From NCBI GenBank assembly GCA_963844965.1, contig CAWJQC010000009.1, positions 62,037 to 126,036 of the forward strand: 64,000 bases of DNA, read 5' to 3'. Each line of letters opens with the position of its first letter. The first letter of the stretch is position 1. Shown piece after piece: positions 6,301-28,128 of the stretch. The notes below the pieces were generated by a model, which ran no database searches, was not told the origin of the DNA, and saw only the letters and a list, made by a program, of their open reading frames with translations. Source of the DNA: an uncultured bacterium (lineage in GTDB: Bacteria > Patescibacteriota > Minisyncoccia > UBA6257 > 2-01-FULL-56-20). The position numbers and the translations under genes are program-made.

Positions 6301-8118
6301 TTAGCAGTACCTTGTCGCCGTCAAAAATTCCCGCATAATGGCGGCCTGTCCCACCGGACCCATCGGGAGCTTGCCATATACATACCCGCCTTTAGCTGAA
6401 TTTTGAATTGTTAAATATTGAATTGTGCTGTTTTTTGCCCCCACTACTGTATTCCCGGTATTACTACCGTCTATTATTGTTTTATTTTCATCTTCTCCGT
6501 AAATACTAACTCCATCTTTTAGCACAACATTTTCATAATAAGTACCGTCGGCTATTTTAATATTATCTCCGCTTTGAGCGGCGTTTATTGCCGCTTGAAT
6601 TGTTGGATAATCGGCTGGCACATTAATGACATTTTGCAATTGCGTAGAAAAAGATTTTTGATCGCTCGTAGCCGTATTACCACTTTTATCAGAAGCGTTT
6701 ATTTTATAATTATAAATTGTCCCCGGTAATAATCCTGTAACAGAAATACTGTGGCTCGTTGAAAGCGTGGAATCAGATAATACTAATACGTCATAATCTC
6801 CAAAGGGAGAATATGATAATTGGATGGTACTGGGTTCGTCTGTTGTGAGTGAAATCACCGCAGAATTTGTGGTTGTATTAGATGATTGGATATTAGATAT
6901 TACGGGTGGCATGCTATCGCAAGAGGTCGTCTCGTCAGGTTTTCCAGTAGTAATTCCACAATGCATCAAATCGTTGCAGGTTCGTGTTTGTTGAGAATTT
7001 GCACAAGTGCTCCATGAGCCACATTGCCAGTTAGGAGTACACGTACATGATTGCGTCAAAGCCGGTTCTCCGGTTGAAACGCCGCAACTGTTTGAATCGT
7101 TGCAGGTTCGTGTTTGCATAGAATTCAAGCAGGTGTTCCAATTTGTGCATTGCCAATTTGGGGTACAATTAACCGTTGTTGAACAACTGGTAGTTTGAGT
7201 TTGCCCGCCAAAATTAACAGTAAGATTGGCTGTTTTAGTACCTGCTTGAGAAAAAGAATTTGAACAGCTTGATTTAGACCCAACACAATCACCAGTCCAA
7301 GAATAAATATAAGTACCAGTTCCTCCTAAAATTGCGACAGAGGAAGAAAATGTTACCGATTGGTTTGTTTGGTATGAGTTTGAATTTGCCGAACAAGAAA
7401 CGGAAAGCGTTGCTGTGGGCGGAGTGCACGATTGAGTTAAAATTGGCTCTCCGGTTGCAACTCCACAATTATTTGAATTGCTACAAGTCCTCATTTGTTG
7501 GGAATTTGCACAAGTGCTCCATGAGCCACATTGCCAATTTGGAGTACATGCTGGTGGCGTAGTATTTTGTTGAATTTGCTGAAGCGTTTGATTTGTTTGC
7601 TGTTGGGCCGCTAACTGTTTTTGCAACAAGGCAACCTGCTGCAGAAGTGCGCTCAATTGCGACTGCAGTGAATTATTAATGTCATTCGTAGTTGCGGGCG
7701 GCGTTGGAGTTGGCGGCGTTGAACTGGTTTCCGCAATCGCCTGCGCGTTGGATGCCGAAAGCTGTTGCGACAATATCGCGTTTGCTGCCGTTCTTGTGAG
7801 CGGCCCGAAATATCCCGCGGGTGGCGTTATGTCTTGAGTAGTTTGGAATTGCTTGACCCCCGCGAGCGTCAAAGAAAAGAAATTGCCGCTGATTGGGCCG
7901 GAATATACGCCTTGAGATGTAAGAAATTCTTGGAGCTTGGTAACGTCGGAATCGCCCTGTATGCCGAAATATAAATCTTTTGTGAATAAGGTTTGCGCCT
8001 TGACCACTGGAATACCAAAGGAAGCCACGAGAAGAACTGCGATAACAAATTTTTTCATATTCATTTTCATTGTTTTCATGGCACTCTTTTTTCTAACGAA
8101 CAACATTAACCATCGCAC
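6301..8118 (-). CDS. secreted cell-surface protein: signal peptide, peptidoglycan-binding-like domain, Q-rich coiled coil, 4 tandem Cys-rich modules, right-handed beta-helix C-terminus; C-terminus probably extends to about 6060 through a frameshift
   Basis: The likely start is the internal MKKFVIAVLLVASF signal peptide. LQEFLTSQGVYSGPISGNFFSLTLAGVKQFQ is a PG-binding-like motif. CTPNWQC(G/T)(S/N)W(S/N)TC.NS.Q.RTC repeats four times. In another frame, rc of 6060..6300 reads NNIQNNGDGIFDANTIMYNTIHDNNGTYSTGIF, which is more beta-helix repeats. The N-terminal 200 aa are paralogous to 42233..44319. Confidence 0.6.
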   Translation of the reverse strand: MRWLMLFVRKKSAMKTMKMNMKKFVIAVLLVASFGIPVVKAQTLFTKDLYFGIQGDSDVTKLQEFLTSQGVYSGPISGNFFSLTLAGVKQFQTTQDITPPAGYFGPLTRTAANAILSQQLSASNAQAIAETSSTPPTPTPPATTNDINNSLQSQLSALLQQVALLQKQLAAQQQTNQTLQQIQQNTTPPACTPNWQCGSWSTCANSQQMRTCSNSNNCGVATGEPILTQSCTPPTATLSVSCSANSNSYQTNQSVTFSSSVAILGGTGTYIYSWTGDCVGSKSSCSNSFSQAGTKTANLTVNFGGQTQTTSCSTTVNCTPNWQCTNWNTCLNSMQTRTCNDSNSCGVSTGEPALTQSCTCTPNWQCGSWSTCANSQQTRTCNDLMHCGITTGKPDETTSCDSMPPVISNIQSSNTTTNSAVISLTTDEPSTIQLSYSPFGDYDVLVLSDSTLSTSHSISVTGLLPGTIYNYKINASDKSGNTATSDQKSFSTQLQNVINVPADYPTIQAAINAAQSGDNIKIADGTYYENVVLKDGVSIYGEDENKTIIDGSNTGNTVVGAKNSTIQYLTIQNSAKGGYVYGKLPMGPVGQAAIMREFLTATRYC

Positions 8119-14165: not shown

Positions 14166-15254
14166 CTATGCGGCGTGCGGGAAAGTGACACGCACGATTG
14201 TGCCCTTATTAAGCTTGCTTTTTATGTTTATGCGCCCGCGGTGCAGTCGCACGATTTCGTTCACGAGCGCCAGGCCCAAGCCGGCGTGACCAGTGACTTT
14301 CGCGTCTTCTTTTTCGCTGCCTTCGCCCGTTCGGCCGGCGCGATAAAACGGTTCCATAATTTTGGGAAGGTCTTCGGGACTTATGCCCCTGCCGTTGTCT
14401 TTGACCGTCAATTCAACTTCGCCCTGATTATTTTTAACCACGGAAACCATGACGGAACCGCCGGCGGGAGTGTAAGAAATGGCGTTATCCAGTAGATTTT
14501 TGACCATTTGTTCCAGCGCTGCGGGATTCCCCCAGATCTGCACCCAGTCGTATTTCGCGGACGCCAGCCTTATTCTTTTCTCCTTTATCGTTTTTGACCA
14601 CTCCGTTTCTCTTTTTACCATCAACGAAACAAGCTCCGAAAAATTCAGCTTATAAAAAGGCGTCTGCGAGCGATTCGCGTATCTGGCGATGAACAGGAGA
14701 TTCTCAATGATCTTCGCCATCCTGTCCACTTCCTCCACGTTGCTCTTTACAAGCTTTACGGCGTCAGCAAGCGTCTCATCTGACGCGCCGCCGCGCAAAA
14801 AAATTTCCGAACTTGTTTTAATGATGCTGAGGGGCGTGCGGAGCTCGTGCGCGGCGTCCGCCATAAACCTTTTTTGGTCCTCCATCGTCTTTTTTACCGG
14901 CCGCAGAACCACGTTCGTGGCGAAATACAGGAGAACACTCGCTGCCGCACCGATAAAAACTTCAATGTAATTTTCCCTCCTGTCGATTTCGTTGAATTCC
15001 GCGGCCAACAGGCCCCTTTCTTCCTGACTGAGAGCGCGCGAATTTTCTATGGTTACCAGCGCCTGCTGCCTTTCGTAGCCGAACACGGCGTCCACGACGA
15101 GCGTGAAGACGATTATGCTCAAAATCGCCGCTATGACCAGCTTAAATCTTGCGGATTGCAAAACTTCTTCCCTGAAAAACCGCTCGCTCCCCCTCCAAGT
15201 CCTATCCTTTGAACTTGTAGCCCACGCCGTGAATTGTTTCCAGTAGGTCCTCAT
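14166..15254 (-). CDS. two-component sensor histidine kinase
   Basis: TM region. The HisKA motif is AAHELRTPL. The HATPase motifs are NLLDNAISYT...DNGRGI...GLGLALV. Confidence 0.85.
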   Translation of the reverse strand: MRTYWKQFTAWATSSKDRTWRGSERFFREEVLQSARFKLVIAAILSIIVFTLVVDAVFGYERQQALVTIENSRALSQEERGLLAAEFNEIDRRENYIEVFIGAAASVLLYFATNVVLRPVKKTMEDQKRFMADAAHELRTPLSIIKTSSEIFLRGGASDETLADAVKLVKSNVEEVDRMAKIIENLLFIARYANRSQTPFYKLNFSELVSLMVKRETEWSKTIKEKRIRLASAKYDWVQIWGNPAALEQMVKNLLDNAISYTPAGGSVMVSVVKNNQGEVELTVKDNGRGISPEDLPKIMEPFYRAGRTGEGSEKEDAKVTGHAGLGLALVNEIVRLHRGRINIKSKLNKGTIVRVTFPHAA

Positions 15255-23071: not shown

Positions 23072-23461
23072 TTATTCTTTGGGAAAAGATTCCTTCACGA
23101 TAATGTCGTTCTTCTCGTATGGCCCAGAACTGGGCGGCTCAATTTCATTGCAGAGCTTAGTCTTGCCATGATTATTATACAAACCAAACTCTATATCCAA
23201 TCTATTGTTCTCATCTGAAACCTTGGCGTATCTATAATATGGCGACCTGCCACTTTTAAAAACCTTGTCTTTTATGCACTTATTGTTTTTATAATGATCT
23301 GATAATCTGTCCTTTATTAAGTCCTGACCGACATAAACAGGGAATCTCTTGTCTGTTTCTAGATTGCGGTAGCCAATCAAATAAACTCCATCAAAATTTA
23401 GATTGGCAAAATTGTCATCATTAAATTTTTTTGGACCAGACCAAGTAACGGTGAACTCCAT
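23072..23461 (-). CDS. hypothetical protein with GIY-YIG-like motif, last gene of the lexA-hsd operon
   Basis: DGVYLIGYRNLETDKRFPVYVGQDLIKDRLSDH fits GIY-(10-11)-YIG followed by R and H. It is separated from hsdS by 1 nt. Confidence 0.4.
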   Translation of the reverse strand: MEFTVTWSGPKKFNDDNFANLNFDGVYLIGYRNLETDKRFPVYVGQDLIKDRLSDHYKNNKCIKDKVFKSGRSPYYRYAKVSDENNRLDIEFGLYNNHGKTKLCNEIEPPSSGPYEKNDIIVKESFPKE

Positions 23462-23462
23462 C

Positions 23463-24833
23463 TTATTTTTTACTCTCTATCATTTCTTCGACCTTTAGCT
23501 TGGCTTCTTCTAATAATTCTTTTGCTTTTTTGCGGGCGGCGTGAGATTCGCGAATAAGTTCGGCGATTTTTTGCTGGGTTGGTTTGGGCAAAATTGGAAT
23601 TACAATATTCTCAACATCTTGATCGGTAATAGTTGGATAAGATGTGCCCGTTGTTGGTTTTTCCATTTGCAACTTACCGATGACGGACCGCAAAACAACC
23701 TGTAGATATTCGCGCGTCGGAGACGGGACTTCAAAAACCGAGAAGGCGCCACTCGCAACAAAGTTTTTGCTCCAGCTATCGGGCACGATTGCGATGGCAC
23801 CACGAGTGGGTCGAACTTTTGAAATCAACAGCTCGCCCCCGACAATTTTAATCTTGGCATTTGCGGGCAACTCTTTACCCAAGATCAAGTTACTAGAAAT
23901 TGCTCCGTTTCCAACGTTAACGTCGCTAATCTCGATATATTCGTATTGGACATCGGGCGCAAGCCCTGCCCGCCTTGCTGTTCGCTTAGCAATTTTGCCA
24001 AGAGGTTTTACATTTTCCCCCAAGAGTTTTATTAACTTTTGATACTTCGGCTGGAAAAATTCGGCGTCAATGCGATTCGCTTTTTTTGCTTCGGACAAAT
24101 TAACCACGCTCCATAATTCATTTTCCGATTCAAAATTCTTAAGCCCCAATTCTTCCAAAAGTAAATTTTCTGCTTGAGAGTATAGGGCATTTGCTTGATC
24201 CAAAGTGTTCTTGGCCCCAATCACCACATTGTTGATATCTTTGACGAATGCTTCTGATGGAATCGGATAAATCAAATCATAAACATCCTGGACATTTAAT
24301 TTGGGTTGAGCGTTCCCGCTAATTCTCCTCATAATCTGAGCAAAACCAAACCTAGAATTTAGAAAGGTTAACAGAAATATTTTTTGCTCCGGCATCACTT
24401 TCGAGTTTTTGAACTTGATACCGATGTTATTCTCACTTATATTACAAACTTCAAATTCTTCTGGCACGGCAGATACAATACCAATCGTGTTGCCAACTTT
24501 AGACATTATCAAGTCGAAGGGAGAAAGCTGAGATTGCTTTAGTCGGTCATTGTCCTTTTTTGAAATATATATGAGCTCGGTTTTATCAAGAAAAAAGTTT
24601 TGCAAATCAGAAATTCTCAAAAAAGGAATACCACTACTTACATAGGCACTACTTTTTAACGAGGAGCCGAAAGGGCCACTAACAACAACAGCGCTTTCTT
24701 TTAAGGTTTGTGTTCCGCCAGAAAATGATTTTATTTCGTTTATTAATTTCAAATACTCCGGCTGATAATATTCCGCATCCAGCCGGTACGCACCCTCCAG
24801 TTGAGATTTTTGGATGATAGAATAACTAACCAT
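23463..24833 (-). CDS. hsdS: type I restriction-modification specificity subunit HsdS (two target-recognition domains)
   Basis: 456 aa. The conserved RLDAEYYQPEY and IDAEFFQPKYQ repeats flank two variable TRDs. Confidence 0.85.
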   Translation of the reverse strand: MVSYSIIQKSQLEGAYRLDAEYYQPEYLKLINEIKSFSGGTQTLKESAVVVSGPFGSSLKSSAYVSSGIPFLRISDLQNFFLDKTELIYISKKDNDRLKQSQLSPFDLIMSKVGNTIGIVSAVPEEFEVCNISENNIGIKFKNSKVMPEQKIFLLTFLNSRFGFAQIMRRISGNAQPKLNVQDVYDLIYPIPSEAFVKDINNVVIGAKNTLDQANALYSQAENLLLEELGLKNFESENELWSVVNLSEAKKANRIDAEFFQPKYQKLIKLLGENVKPLGKIAKRTARRAGLAPDVQYEYIEISDVNVGNGAISSNLILGKELPANAKIKIVGGELLISKVRPTRGAIAIVPDSWSKNFVASGAFSVFEVPSPTREYLQVVLRSVIGKLQMEKPTTGTSYPTITDQDVENIVIPILPKPTQQKIAELIRESHAARKKAKELLEEAKLKVEEMIESKK

Positions 24834-25487
24834 TTATTTTCTATTCTCTTTTTTGAATTTAACCAGCTTGGCCATTATTGAATCATTTAAAACTATAGCT
24901 TTTTCAATAAATCTTTCGCAAAGCCTTATCTCTTTTCGCATTGTTTCCAGCCACGTCTTTTTGGTTAAAGATTTTTTTGATATTGGCCTAAAACTCCTGT
25001 CATAACCAGAAACAGCGGTGTCATAATAAATACGGTGAGTTAACATCTTTCGCTTTACTAATATCTCATGCATAACTTTGTCTTCGTTGAATTTCTCTAG
25101 ATCTTTTTTAACCGAAGATTTTCTGACCATAGAATCTTCAGTAAGTTTATTGAATAAAGAAGCTTTTTCTGAAAATTGCAGATCAAGAGAGGCGTTTATA
25201 AGTTGGCAAATTTTTTCCCTATACGAAAACGCTCTCAACCAAAAATTTTCCAGGTGGTAGCCCAGGGATTCAAAATCAGTTTCCTGATGAATCGGTGATA
25301 GCCAGCCCTTGCCTGTCATAATTATTTTCGCAGTCCTTTCACAAAGCAGGTACGTCCTGGCTGCCCTACTATAAACGTCAATCAAATCGGATATTTCTTG
25401 ACGGACCTCATTGTGATAGGCTTTCGCTTTCTTGGGAAACAATCGCCTATCAAAATCAAAAAATGGTTGCCCTTTTGTTTTTTTCAT
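24834..25487 (-). CDS. hypothetical protein inserted between hsdM and hsdS; HEPN-like Rx4H motif (candidate Abi-type effector)
   Basis: 217 aa. KRKMLTHRIYYD contains R-x4-H. Its position between hsdM and hsdS is typical of embedded defense genes such as PrrC or Abi. No protein-level match is recognised. Confidence 0.4.
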   Translation of the reverse strand: MKKTKGQPFFDFDRRLFPKKAKAYHNEVRQEISDLIDVYSRAARTYLLCERTAKIIMTGKGWLSPIHQETDFESLGYHLENFWLRAFSYREKICQLINASLDLQFSEKASLFNKLTEDSMVRKSSVKKDLEKFNEDKVMHEILVKRKMLTHRIYYDTAVSGYDRSFRPISKKSLTKKTWLETMRKEIRLCERFIEKAIVLNDSIMAKLVKFKKENRK

Positions 25488-25498
25488 TATTTTTTATC

Positions 25499-26806
25499 TC
25501 AAAAATCGAATTTTTGTTCCTTGGTAAATTTCACGAATGCCTCGGCGATTTCGTCCAAGTCGTGGTCAAGCACCTTACGGCCTTTAGAGCCGTGCACATA
25601 ACTACCGTTCGCGTCTTTTTTATAAATATAGTCACCAGAATTATCTTTGCTACCTTTTTTAGAGACCGCCATGAAAATTGGATAATCCTTTTGCGGTTTG
25701 CCAGTGTCGCCGCCCCATTTTTGTAAAAAGAGCACGCTTGTTTTTGTGCCGGTATGCGGCTTGAACGTGTTACCGTGAAGCCCGACGACGGCAAGAATAC
25801 GCGCTTTTTCAAAAAGCCACTCACGGATATATTCCATGTTGGTGTTGTTAAGCACGCCTTGCGGCAGAACGATTGCCAAGCGGCCGCCGGGACGGAGCAT
25901 GTCCAATGCGCGTTCAATAAATAAAATGTGTCGCTCAACGTTATTGCGAAGCTTACCTCCTTCTTTTTTTGCCAGTTCGTACTGGCGCAGAAGTCCCTGC
26001 TCCGGATTTTCTCCGGCGAAGGGCGGATTCGTGAGCAATATATCAAAATTCAAATGCCGATAGGTCAGATGATTTTCCTTGTCGCTTTCGCTATTATCCA
26101 AGGTTTGCAACAGAGGTTTAAGCGCCACGCGTGCTTCTTCCGCCTCCGGACCAGTCCACTCCCGCGAATCCAACGAATCACGTTTGAAAATATGGTGCTT
26201 GCCATCGCCAGCGATAAGCATTAATGCCTGCGATATCCGGCGCATGTTGTCGTCAAAGTCAATGCCAAAAAGATATTTTGCGGCGTAGGATTTTTTCGCC
26301 GCTTCGGTTTTTGAAAAATTGTCCCAGACATGATACATCGCGTGAAGGAGGAATCCGCCAGAGCCGCATGCCGGATCTACCACGTATTCGTTTTCTTTCG
26401 GGCTGAGCATCTTTACGCACATTTTAATGACATGCCGCGGCGTGAAATACTGCCCCTTTTTTCCCTTAGAAACTTCGGTGATGAGATGCTCAAACGCTCC
26501 ATCCACAATCTCGTATTCGCCCTGCCCAAGCTCAAATAAGCGAATATTTTCCACGAACGGCACGCAGATGTTAAGGCGTGCGGCGGTAAGCTTGATTTTA
26601 TCCGATGGTTCGAATGTGTCGGGCCACTCCTTGACCGCTTCCTTAAAAAGCCCGTTTACAACCTCGTAGGTTTTTTCGGCGTCTTTATATCTTCTAAACA
26701 ACACCTCCCTACTTTCCCTTTCTCGGATAGCCATTTGCTCATCGTAGAGCTTGGCGTAAATAAGCTTGAAGATTCTCTTCAAAAACATTACCGCCGGAGC
26801 CGGCAA
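25499..26806 (-). CDS. hsdM: type I restriction-modification N6-adenine DNA methyltransferase HsdM
   Basis: The protein is 435 aa. It has the AdoMet motif VVDPACGSGGFL and the catalytic motif LLTNPPFAG. Confidence 0.9.
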   Translation of the reverse strand: MPAPAVMFLKRIFKLIYAKLYDEQMAIRERESREVLFRRYKDAEKTYEVVNGLFKEAVKEWPDTFEPSDKIKLTAARLNICVPFVENIRLFELGQGEYEIVDGAFEHLITEVSKGKKGQYFTPRHVIKMCVKMLSPKENEYVVDPACGSGGFLLHAMYHVWDNFSKTEAAKKSYAAKYLFGIDFDDNMRRISQALMLIAGDGKHHIFKRDSLDSREWTGPEAEEARVALKPLLQTLDNSESDKENHLTYRHLNFDILLTNPPFAGENPEQGLLRQYELAKKEGGKLRNNVERHILFIERALDMLRPGGRLAIVLPQGVLNNTNMEYIREWLFEKARILAVVGLHGNTFKPHTGTKTSVLFLQKWGGDTGKPQKDYPIFMAVSKKGSKDNSGDYIYKKDANGSYVHGSKGRKVLDHDLDEIAEAFVKFTKEQKFDF

Positions 26807-27452
26807 GCGCTAATTCTTCTATACGCTTGACGACTTTTATGAAGTCAAACTTCGGGGTCAAATCGCTCCACGTTTTCTTAATTTCAAACAAATCGTCCAC
26901 TGTTTGATCGGCCGTTGGAATCTCGCTCAATGATTCATATTCTTTCGGATAGGGACGATATAAAATTACTTTATCCGTGCCGTTAGACCAGATGCCGATC
27001 TCCGACCCCTCCGCGCTCAAATACGCTTTTAATTGTTCCTGCCCTTTCTTTTCGCTGGGCGCCTTAACTTCGACAATAATGTACGGTGTGATTTTATCTT
27101 TCTTGTAAACAACGATGTCCGCGGCCTTTGCGTGAATTTCTCGTCCAAAGTGGATGCTTTTTTCTGTTTCCATTCGCTCAAACGGATATTTGTAGTTGGT
27201 GTGAAGTTTATATAACCAGAGTTGGCGGACGATTTCCTCCGGCCTGCCTGCGTTTTTCTTGGCATCAAAAACTAAACGTTTTTTACCGCTTTTCAGGTCG
27301 GCGATGAAAAAACGGCTTGGTTCGTCTTCGGTAATTTCGAGCGCCGCGTTAAATTCTACGCCCTCAAACTCTTTGAGACCGTAGAGCAGCTCGGTATCCT
27401 TAAAAATCTTTCCAATTATTTCCTCTGCTTTGTTTTGTTTTTTGGTGGGCAT
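26739..27452 (-). CDS. stand-alone HsdR N-terminal-like PD-(D/E)xK nuclease domain protein (HSDR_N family)
   Basis: 237 aa. KAADIVVYKKDKITPYIIVEVKAPS...QLKAYLSAEGSEIGIWSNGTDKV matches the HSDR_N pattern D..v...iivEvK...Q...Y...G..tNG. It overlaps the hsdM start. No helicase-type HsdR is present in the window. Confidence 0.6.
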   Translation of the reverse strand: MPTKKQNKAEEIIGKIFKDTELLYGLKEFEGVEFNAALEITEDEPSRFFIADLKSGKKRLVFDAKKNAGRPEEIVRQLWLYKLHTNYKYPFERMETEKSIHFGREIHAKAADIVVYKKDKITPYIIVEVKAPSEKKGQEQLKAYLSAEGSEIGIWSNGTDKVILYRPYPKEYESLSEIPTADQTVDDLFEIKKTWSDLTPKFDFIKVVKRIEELALAGSGGNVFEENLQAYLRQALR

Positions 27453-27453
27453 A

Positions 27454-28095
27454 TTATCTTATCGGTTGCCAATAGTTATTTTTAAGCACCGAGATAATTT
27501 TTCCTTTGAGTTCCATCTCGTGGGTAAAAGGAATCAGCTCGTACTTTGGGTTTTCGGGCTTAAGGTACACGTATGGCGGTTTGTCGTCGGACATGAATCG
27601 CTTTATCGTGCCCTCGTCGCCGATTTGGGCATAGACTATTTCACCGGATACGAATTCTTTTTTTGTTTGAACTAGCACGGCGTCGCCGTCGTCAATACCC
27701 GCGTTTATCATCGAATCGCCGGAGACTTTGAGCATAAACACCTCTTCCGCCAATCTGGAAATCTCTTGAGAAACTGGCTGCCATTCACCGGAAATTTCTA
27801 TCGACTGAATCGGAGCCCCGGCGCTTGTTATGCCAAGAAAGGCCGCGAGGGGCGGTCTACCGAGCATCTCATACCCCAAAGGCAATATGGCTAATCCTCT
27901 AGCAGCTCCTTCTTTTCTTTGTATTATTTTATTTTTCTCAAGCTTATTGAGAAGATCTAAAACTGATTGATTTGAGGAAACGCCTAGACTTTCTCGCATT
28001 TCATCAAAAGTCGGTGGATGGCCATCGCTCTTAATATATGAGTAAATAACCTCTAAAAGCTGCTTTTGTCTTGGTGTTGTTATATTTTTCATCAC
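27454..28095 (-). CDS. lexA: LexA repressor (S24 peptidase)
   Basis: N-terminal winged HTH. An AG site lies in the linker (TSAGAP). The C-terminus has GDSMINAGIDDGDAVLV...GTIKRF, which is the Ser-Lys dyad. Its stop is 1 nt from the next gene's ATG. Confidence 0.85.
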   Translation of the reverse strand: MMKNITTPRQKQLLEVIYSYIKSDGHPPTFDEMRESLGVSSNQSVLDLLNKLEKNKIIQRKEGAARGLAILPLGYEMLGRPPLAAFLGITSAGAPIQSIEISGEWQPVSQEISRLAEEVFMLKVSGDSMINAGIDDGDAVLVQTKKEFVSGEIVYAQIGDEGTIKRFMSDDKPPYVYLKPENPKYELIPFTHEMELKGKIISVLKNNYWQPIR

Positions 28096-28099
28096 TTAC

Positions 28100-28128
28100 A
28101 TTATACCCGACTATATATTCAGTTACAA
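28100..28128 (-). promoter_or_regulatory. candidate lexA promoter (TTGTAA-17-TATAAT) with near-palindromic AACTGAATATATAGTCG between the hexamers
   Basis: rc reads attgTAACtgaatatatagtcgggTATAATgtaagtgATG. The -10 ends only about 7 nt before the ATG. Confidence 0.35.

Follow-up and report, generated by a model that had tools for sequence, protein, structure and literature searches.

Why does a restriction-modification (RM) operon in a bacterium of the candidate phyla radiation (CPR) carry an additional gene in front of its specificity gene? The genomes of CPR bacteria are tiny, and few defence systems have been recognised in them. The gene in question is an open reading frame (ORF) at 24834..25487, on the minus strand, of a 64,000-nt stretch of DNA from an uncultured member of the Patescibacteriota (contig CAWJQC010000009.1, positions 62,037 to 126,036). 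The whole stretch is referred to here as the window. Judged from its sequence, the 217-amino-acid product is a member of the HEPN superfamily and belongs to the Pfam family HEPN_Cthe2314. Its identification as an RNase effector linked to RM is well supported. The reading preferred here, with a probability of about 0.55, is that the protein is a HEPN endoribonuclease that serves as an RNA-targeting, growth-arresting second arm of the RM system, with its expression, and possibly its release, coupled through LexA to DNA damage or phage replication.

Family assignment and predicted fold of the 217-residue protein

The gene begins with ATG in the ORF list of the window, and its coordinates and length are exactly those given in a preliminary description made from the DNA letters. 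That description called the gene unknown. Its family is in fact already in Pfam, as PF18730, and was defined as the Cthe_2314 HEPN family by Anantharaman et al. in 2013 (PMC3710099). A Pfam profile search aligns protein residues 68-195 with profile positions 39-160 of 174 (E 1.8e-11) and scores 44.8 bits against a gathering cutoff of 27.1. A phmmer search of 1.84 billion representative proteins returned only 39 relatives at E <= 1e-3. An alignment of 28 of these relatives is the basis of the conservation counts, and a 10-sequence alignment was used in the search for related loci. All 28 aligned relatives also match PF18730. Among the GTDB representative genomes a single locus was recovered, in Candidatus Nealsonbacteria. 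A tblastn search of plasmid and phage collections gave no match, and a scan of viral contigs gave no relative.

The preliminary description had based its proposal of a HEPN-like protein on the string KRKMLTHR, read as an R-x4-H motif. This string is present at residues 145-152 and supplies R146-x4-H151. In shuffles of the protein, R-x4-H occurs in 33% and R-x4-6-H in 70%; by itself, the motif is evidence of small weight. Of the 28 relatives, which are 20-35% identical, 27 have R146 and 27 have H151. In predicted helix 2, a second motif has N81 and R85 in all 28 relatives, Y77 in 27 and E80 in 26. The full set of conserved positions across the 28 is Y77, E80, N81, R85, R90, N98, R146, H151 and W179. 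The spacing from Y-H-x-E-N-F-x-x-R to Rx4H is constant at 69 residues in all 14 family members checked. The Rx4H motif is judged real because R146 and H151 are conserved, this spacing is fixed and PF18730 scores above its gathering cutoff. R146 and H151, together with E80, N81 and R85 of helix 2, are the likely active site.

The gene is real and is maintained under strong purifying selection. Compared with a 94%-identical copy in the related locus L001, the ratio of nonsynonymous to synonymous substitution rates (dN/dS) is 0.03 (67 codons differ by synonymous changes only and 13 by a changed amino acid), and the gene is therefore kept as a protein. Its guanine-plus-cytosine (GC) content is 0.34-0.36, against about 0.46 for the RM gene.

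A structure prediction aimed at the HEPN helices, as had been proposed in the preliminary description, gave a confident, all-alpha AlphaFold2 model from the alignment (predicted local distance difference test, pLDDT, 89; predicted template modelling score, pTM, 0.85). The predicted helices span residues 19-58, 68-100 (with E80), 137-150 and 173-216. An insert at 101-136 contains short helices within residues 112-135. R146 is placed in helix 137-150, and H151 at the end of that helix. In this predicted model the helices follow the canonical HEPN order, and the insert and the motif position also agree with the HEPN description in PMC3710099. The PF18730 score, the same match in the 28 relatives and the predicted topology bear out the earlier view of a HEPN-like protein.

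Fold searches are consistent with this assignment and non-discriminating, with designed helical bundles at equal or higher scores. Foldseek returned nothing significant from the PDB or from viral structures. Sequence and profile searches of the PDB gave no true HEPN match; the sole matches were to GCN4-adaptor fusion constructs and were rejected, the shared YHIENEIARI being due to chance. PHROGs and NCBIfam gave no useful match, and a weak PADLOC match to LeoA (1.8e-4) was judged an artefact of helical regions. The HEPN assignment draws on the PF18730 profile, on motif conservation and on the helix topology of the model, and not on the structure search.

The variable slot of a LexA-headed RM operon

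Six minus-strand ORFs run from 28095 to 23072 and are tightly packed, with gaps of 1, 11, 0 and 1 nt. They are, in order, lexA, a nuclease ORF, a methylase ORF, the HEPN gene, the specificity (S) gene and a 129-amino-acid ORF. The nuclease and methylase ORFs are the two halves of one fusion gene, which is described further below. The methylase stop codon (25499-25501) is followed by 11 nt and then the HEPN start codon. The HEPN stop codon, TAA (24834-24836), abuts the S-gene ATG at 24833, leaving 0 nt. These distances correct the 12 nt and 1 nt reported earlier.

The slot between the fusion gene and the S gene was compared in seven distinct loci with the fusion gene, whose flanking genes differ from locus to locus. 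All seven have the order LexA, RM, one or two variable genes and S, where S is visible, and the slot is occupied in every one of them. HEPN_Cthe2314 genes are found in the slot of the window and of L001, L007 and L008. The slot of L026 (6956..7642) holds a DUF4145 gene, which also matches PADLOC PD-T7-4 at E 4e-12. An NYN RNase gene with a 116-amino-acid ORF is found in L030 (6947..7594), and an NYN RNase gene in L033/L034 (~6928..7542). Coiled-coil-like proteins of no confident family are encoded in L028 (3127..4170; 347 amino acids) and L036 (6956..7762; 268 amino acids). Five of the seven loci have a predicted RNase in the slot, from two HEPN families and NYN.

LexA in these loci is 61-73% identical to that of the window, the nuclease 70-90%, the methylase 75-88% and S 35-39%. 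A conserved RM C-terminus, GRKVLDHDLDEIA..F.KF, and a conserved S N-terminus, IIKKSQLEG..RLDAEYYQPEY, flank the slot. Slot lengths are 665-1083 nt, and each locus has a lower GC content in the slot than in the RM gene (0.35 vs 0.46 in the window). Conserved flanks around a variable slot of lower GC fit a cassette exchange by recombination in those flanks.

A LexA gene lies upstream of the fusion in all seven loci. It is directly upstream (1-9 nt) in six, and L026 has one extra 123-amino-acid ORF between the LexA gene and the fusion. The seven-locus alignment of the region upstream of lexA contains a -35 element TTGAC, a dyad of consensus GAMYATWTRGTC and a -10 element GGTATAAT. The exact consensus of the dyad is present in the window and in five of the six other loci, one copy per locus and only upstream of lexA (L026 3960-3971, L028 496-507, L030 4331-4342, L033 4294-4305, L036 4323-4334). 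The L008 variant, GAATAAATGGTC, is one position off the consensus, and the L033 dyad is a near-perfect palindrome, CCCGACTA-TT-TAGTCGGG. For an autoregulated lexA, an operator that overlaps the promoter is standard SOS logic. The dyad is a candidate LexA operator of this CPR lineage, to which LexA would bind. Given the 0-11-nt spacing of the genes, co-transcription of RM, HEPN and S and their control by LexA are probable. The sole other near-palindromic site in the window, GACCATTTGTTC at 14502..14513, was considered as a further SOS box and rejected; it falls within the coding region of a histidine kinase and is probably a chance occurrence.

L001 (94%-identical HEPN) and L007 (61%) share the RM-HEPN-S order with the window. 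The S gene of L001 (1110..2471) is about 60% identical overall to that of the window. Its C-terminal half is near-identical and its first target-recognition domain (TRD) is wholly different, a pattern that indicates a specificity swap between operons with 94%-identical HEPN genes. L008 (2764..4496; HEPN 72% identical) is a decayed copy, with a truncated nuclease ORF and a methylase that has lost residues 174-415. Another deletion in L008 begins at about residue 144 of the HEPN protein, immediately ahead of Rx4H, and reaches into the 3' end of S.

Several more distant members, of about 30% identity, are found beside other methylases. In L021 (8..4223) and L022, a 33%-identical HEPN member lies between a type III-like N6_N4 methylase gene (mod) and a ResIII helicase gene (res), with gaps of 1-6 nt. 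In L019 (1416..2957, minus strand) and L020, a fusion of LexA (DNA-binding domain and S24 peptidase) with an N6_N4 methylase is divergent from the HEPN operon. In L010 (4359..5492, minus strand), the LexA DNA-binding domain alone is joined to a methylase; another methylase comes after it, and the HEPN operon is again divergent from the fusion. A DNA methylase lies within 3 kb in about 4 of 11 informative HEPN contexts. By a rough estimate, this is far above chance for a genome of ~1000 genes.

Members of the family also occur in other settings. In L023 (7260..8654), just downstream of ftsA-ftsZ on an 846-kb contig, 21 nt separate the end of a MUG113 (GIY-YIG-related) gene from the HEPN_Cthe2314 gene that follows it, and the pair may be a different two-gene module. 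An Xre-type helix-turn-helix (HTH) gene lies near the HEPN member of L025. In L011 (6884..7603), the HEPN gene is split into ORFs of 155 and 76 amino acids by an apparent frameshift just before the motif's THR, with a tyrosine recombinase ~1 kb away. Some other contexts hold no notable neighbour. Several close homologues have no RM genes nearby, and the RM link of HEPN_Cthe2314 is therefore recurrent and not obligatory.

Proposed role and rival explanations

In the preferred reading, the HEPN protein is a predicted metal-independent endoribonuclease in the effector slot of an operon made up of lexA, the fusion gene, the slot and S. It would form an RNA-targeting second arm beside the DNA-targeting RM module, and its action would lead to growth arrest of the abortive-infection type. 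The RNase gene would be co-transcribed with the RM genes from the lexA promoter bearing the conserved dyad. Restraint of the RNase would come from LexA/RecA-dependent transcription, from masking by the (RM)2S complex, or from both. As a means of control, LexA is an equally good candidate to licensing by the RM complex. For the HEPN protein we infer RNase activity, toxicity, a defence role and a mode of control. A more specific proposal is tentative, namely that the HEPN gene is one allele of a hitherto undescribed composite module, widespread in CPR, in which an autoregulated, DNA-damage-responsive lexA heads a type IIB-like fusion, S and, between these two, an always-filled RNA-effector slot (HEPN_Cthe2314, DUF4145, NYN and others) that is swapped by recombination. 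The RNase of such a module would be licensed by RecA-triggered cleavage of LexA and not by contact with RM.

Several observations weigh against the preferred reading. The RM fusion is frameshifted in the window, and for this reason the partner RM system may be inactive there. Homologues of 54-59% identity in L002/L003 and in Candidatus Nealsonbacteria (L005/L009) have no RM genes nearby; P0003 adjoins an ABC transporter, and the Nealsonbacteria copy lies among housekeeping genes. The HEPN gene is likewise stand-alone in L016 and in L017, the latter with a weak HNH match among its neighbours. Of the five types of slot gene, two lack a recognisable nuclease domain. The LexA could merely be the housekeeping SOS repressor of the cell. 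The sample is small, with seven RM-fusion loci and about 11 informative HEPN-family loci. No experimentally characterised PF18730 member was found in the literature searched, which was incomplete.

Four other explanations were weighed. By analogy with PrrC, and in line with the licensing by the RM complex proposed in the preliminary description, the HEPN protein might be bound and held inactive by (RM)2S and freed when a phage anti-restriction factor disables the complex. The gene lies between genes whose products assemble, at distances of 11 and 0 nt, and keeps this position in L001 and L007 despite the changed S specificity domain. A distant member of the family lies between type III mod and res, and in L008 deletions have removed the catalytic region of the methylase as well as the half of the HEPN gene that holds Rx4H. 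An analogy of this kind is proposed for RM-linked HEPN genes generally in PMC3710099. Such licensing is nonetheless rather doubtful for a protein without an ABC ATPase or other sensor domain, whose close homologues live without an RM partner. NYN, DUF4145 and unknown proteins fill the same slot, and because these are unrelated, a shared interface with the RM complex is unlikely. In the window, moreover, the HEPN gene is intact and under strong purifying selection while the RM fusion is frameshifted. It is unlikely, too, that the slot holds a selfish cassette, i.e., an autonomous toxin or addiction element in a recombination-prone junction of a mobile RM operon, uncoupled from restriction. A slot GC of 0.35 against 0.46 for RM, lower in every locus, would suit such an element. 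So would the swapping of slot content between operons that are otherwise 75-90% identical, and the presence of members alone or near an Xre-type HTH gene (L025), MUG113 (L023) or an integrase (L011). The slot, however, is filled in all seven loci and holds a predicted RNase in five, which indicates selection for a class of function over random insertion. The family is also linked independently to type III RM and to LexA-methylase fusions, no cognate antitoxin such as MNT is adjacent, and the dN/dS of 0.03 is that of a maintained protein.

The remaining two explanations deny the protein its activity or its fold. With a non-catalytic HEPN fold it would be no toxin and would serve as a regulator that binds RNA or nucleotides, or as a subunit with an accessory or assembly role in RM. 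Some HEPN families, e.g., MtlR, only bind (PMC3710099), and the gene is stably kept though no antitoxin is visible. Inactive HEPN families, however, typically lose their catalytic residues (Table 1 of PMC3710099). With the catalytic R and H each present in 27 of the 28 relatives, along with the acidic and polar residues of helix 2, and with NYN and DUF4145 nucleases in the same slot of sister operons, this explanation is improbable. It is very improbable that the protein has no HEPN domain and is a generic four-helix bundle with a coincidental Rx4H. The 33% rate of R-x4-H in shuffles and the PDB sequence and profile searches without a HEPN match would allow for this. The PF18730 match, on the other hand, is 17 bits over the curated cutoff and is shared by all 28 relatives, the motif is conserved and fixed in position, and the helix order, insert and motif placement agree with the HEPN definition.

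Sixteen HEPN clades were linked to RM systems in the 2013 survey (PMC3710099), so the presence of such an RNase gene among RM genes is to be expected. For the conserved architectures and operons of the Cthe_2314 family, the entry in that survey is 'None detected' (PMC3710099). The window protein resembles PF18730 in its Rx4-6H motif, its stand-alone single domain, its size class (about 200-250 amino acids) and its bacterial host. It differs from the family as surveyed in 2013 in being part of a CPR subfamily found in a type IIB-like RM operon, in a type III RM operon and beside LexA-methylase fusions. The Cthe_2314 family gains a conserved genomic context, which the survey lacked. Literature searches on PF18730, on RM with HEPN in CPR and on RM operons headed by LexA gave no earlier account of such an arrangement, within a coverage that is incomplete. 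Within that coverage, the RM context of the Cthe_2314 family and the order LexA-RM-[RNase slot]-S in CPR look new.

What the locus offers is a very common CPR RM operon with an always-filled, exchangeable slot for predicted RNases. The leading lexA gene and the promoter dyad suggest that DNA damage or phage replication could turn on the DNA- and RNA-targeting arms together. If the preferred reading is true, the slot would be a convenient search site for new effector genes.

The flanking RM system, known systems and neighbouring features

The preliminary description placed the gene between hsdM and hsdS. Its position inside an RM operon, before the S gene, stands and recurs in relatives; the classical type I pair does not. 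The hsdM-hsdS label is only partly right because the M gene carries its own nuclease domain and there is no HsdR. The nuclease and methylase ORFs both match one 672-amino-acid PADLOC model, PDLC03034, which identifies them as the two halves of a single fusion gene. Homologues of the fusion number >7900 proteins at E <= 1e-40. Among the best 120 listed, which are 74-88% identical, 118 are single proteins of 611-664 amino acids with HSDR_N_2, N6_Mtase and Eco57I domains. The hosts of these best 120 include Magasanikbacteria, Nomurabacteria, Portnoybacteria, Giovannonibacteria, Daviesbacteria and Shapirobacteria. The fusion protein is very common in Patescibacteria. In the window, the insertion at 26775 that splits the gene lies outside any homopolymer, and the frameshift may be a genuine mutation that inactivates the gene or an artefact of assembly.

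The two marks of a classical type I RM system, a separate HsdR and a stand-alone HsdM, are absent from the window. It has no HsdR-sized ORF (no ORF >605 amino acids), and the flanks of seven related loci contain no HsdR or ResIII gene. The hsdM model TIGR00497 scores 52.7 bits against a cutoff of 242.75. The best PDB match of the methylase part is RM.BsaXI (8w0p, 1.8e-27), and for the nuclease part no PDB sequence match was detected. By its domain content, the flanking system is a BcgI/BsaXI-like nuclease-methylase fusion plus S, of type IIB architecture. Like BsaXI and BcgI, it has an N-terminal PD-(D/E)XK domain, a gamma-class N6-adenine methylase and a separate S subunit with two TRDs. RM.BsaXI acts as an (RM)2S assembly (PMC11997821). 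The resemblance to type IIB is one of architecture and sequence; the fusion has about 650 amino acids against 916 for RM.BsaXI, and PADLOC places it under its 'type I methyltransferase' model. Neither an effector between RM and S nor a lexA leader is described in the BsaXI abstracts or, for such operons, in the literature searched. The coordinates of the features are given in Table 1.

Table 1. Positions of the HEPN gene, its motifs and the other features of the operon in the window
Feature	Coordinates	Strand	Description
HEPN_Cthe2314-family gene	24834..25487	-	PF18730 match; slot between RM fusion gene and S gene; predicted metal-independent endoribonuclease
Rx4H motif codons, R146-K-M-L-T-H151	25035..25052	-	End of predicted helix 3 (137-150) and start of the next loop
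Second conserved motif, Y77-H-L-E-N-F-W-L-R85	25233..25259	-	In predicted helix 2; includes acidic residue E80
lexA-like repressor gene	27454..28095	-	Pfam LexA DNA-binding domain and S24 peptidase; heads the operon; 1-nt gap to the nuclease ORF
PD-(D/E)XK nuclease part of fusion (HSDR_N_2)	26739..27452	-	Pfam 2.8e-23; PADLOC PDLC03034 positions 55-225; D...EVK motif in translation
Methyltransferase part of fusion (N6_Mtase/Eco57I), earlier called hsdM	25499..26806	-	Pfam N6_Mtase 2.2e-38; PDLC03034 positions 220-668 of 672
1-nt insertion splitting the fusion gene	26775	-	Window GAAGAGAATC vs GAAGA-AATC in three intact relatives
S subunit gene, two TRDs	23463..24833	-	Pfam Methylase_S; PADLOC Specificity_I 9.5e-42; PDB S subunits 3okg, 5ybb; N-terminal IIQKSQLEG..RLDAEYYQPEY conserved between loci at an overall identity of 35-60%
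129-amino-acid ORF, no family	23072..23461	-	1 nt after S gene; GC about 0.38
Promoter-like site, TTGTAA, 17-nt spacer, TATAAT	28100..28128	-	Upstream of lexA; top-scoring promoter-like site in the region; aligned with TTGAC...GGTATAAT of six other loci
Candidate LexA operator, dyad GAATATATAGTC	28109..28120	-	Between -35 and -10; consensus GAMYATWTRGTC

PrrC of EcoprrI, and RloC, are HEPN-superfamily RNases whose genes lie in RM clusters, and a back-up to DNA restriction that targets RNA is the proposed role, as it is here. The preliminary description named PrrC-type nucleases among the effectors often found at such junctions, and in its architecture the window protein is not of that type. 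PrrC and RloC are members of another HEPN family and have an ABC ATPase regulatory domain at the N-terminus, whereas the window protein is a bare HEPN domain of 217 amino acids in which Pfam, NCBIfam and PADLOC detect no ATPase domain. EcoprrI is also a classical HsdMSR system (type Ic hsd locus), whereas the partner in the window is a lexA-headed nuclease-methylase fusion plus S, with no HsdR and no classical hsdM-hsdS-hsdR locus.

DUF4145 (PF13643)/PD-T7-4 is, like the window protein, a solo HEPN family, and it occupies the same slot in L026. PD-T7-4 is a single-gene anti-phage system, and DUF4145 has been reported in RM operons (PMC3710099). It is a separate HEPN family, and the DUF4145 and PD-T7-4 models have no match to the window HEPN protein. 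HEPN-MNT toxin-antitoxin systems differ in having an adjacent nucleotidyltransferase, and none was matched among the neighbours of the window HEPN gene. The operon is also distinct from the methylation-associated defence system (MADS), with MAD2 at 275 bits vs 720, MAD5 at 164 vs 400, and no other mad components adjacent. The type I hsd loci of Campylobacter carry rlo ('R-linked ORF') genes, which are variable, unrelated ORFs between the RM genes. The concept is the same as in the window, but with another host phylum, another RM type and another position. The rlo loci are not known to have a LexA leader.

Membership of the 129-amino-acid ORF in the system is uncertain. It has no family in Pfam or NCBIfam, only chance-level matches in PADLOC (0.046) and PHROGs (0.092), and L001, the closest relative, lacks it. 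A role as a conserved GIY-YIG/MUG113-like partner was considered and rejected, as the ORF is unlike the MUG113 protein of L023 and the 136-amino-acid protein of L025 and is missing from L001. Its one link is a weak similarity (pairwise E 1e-3) to a 110-amino-acid ORF that precedes the HEPN gene of L019, and it was rejected as a core component. Nothing came out of the Rfam and tRNA scans of the window. Fic-domain genes are found directly upstream of the lexA-RM operon in L026 (3220..3846, with a MazE-like partner) and in L033 (3132..4022), which hints at a small defence or toxin island.

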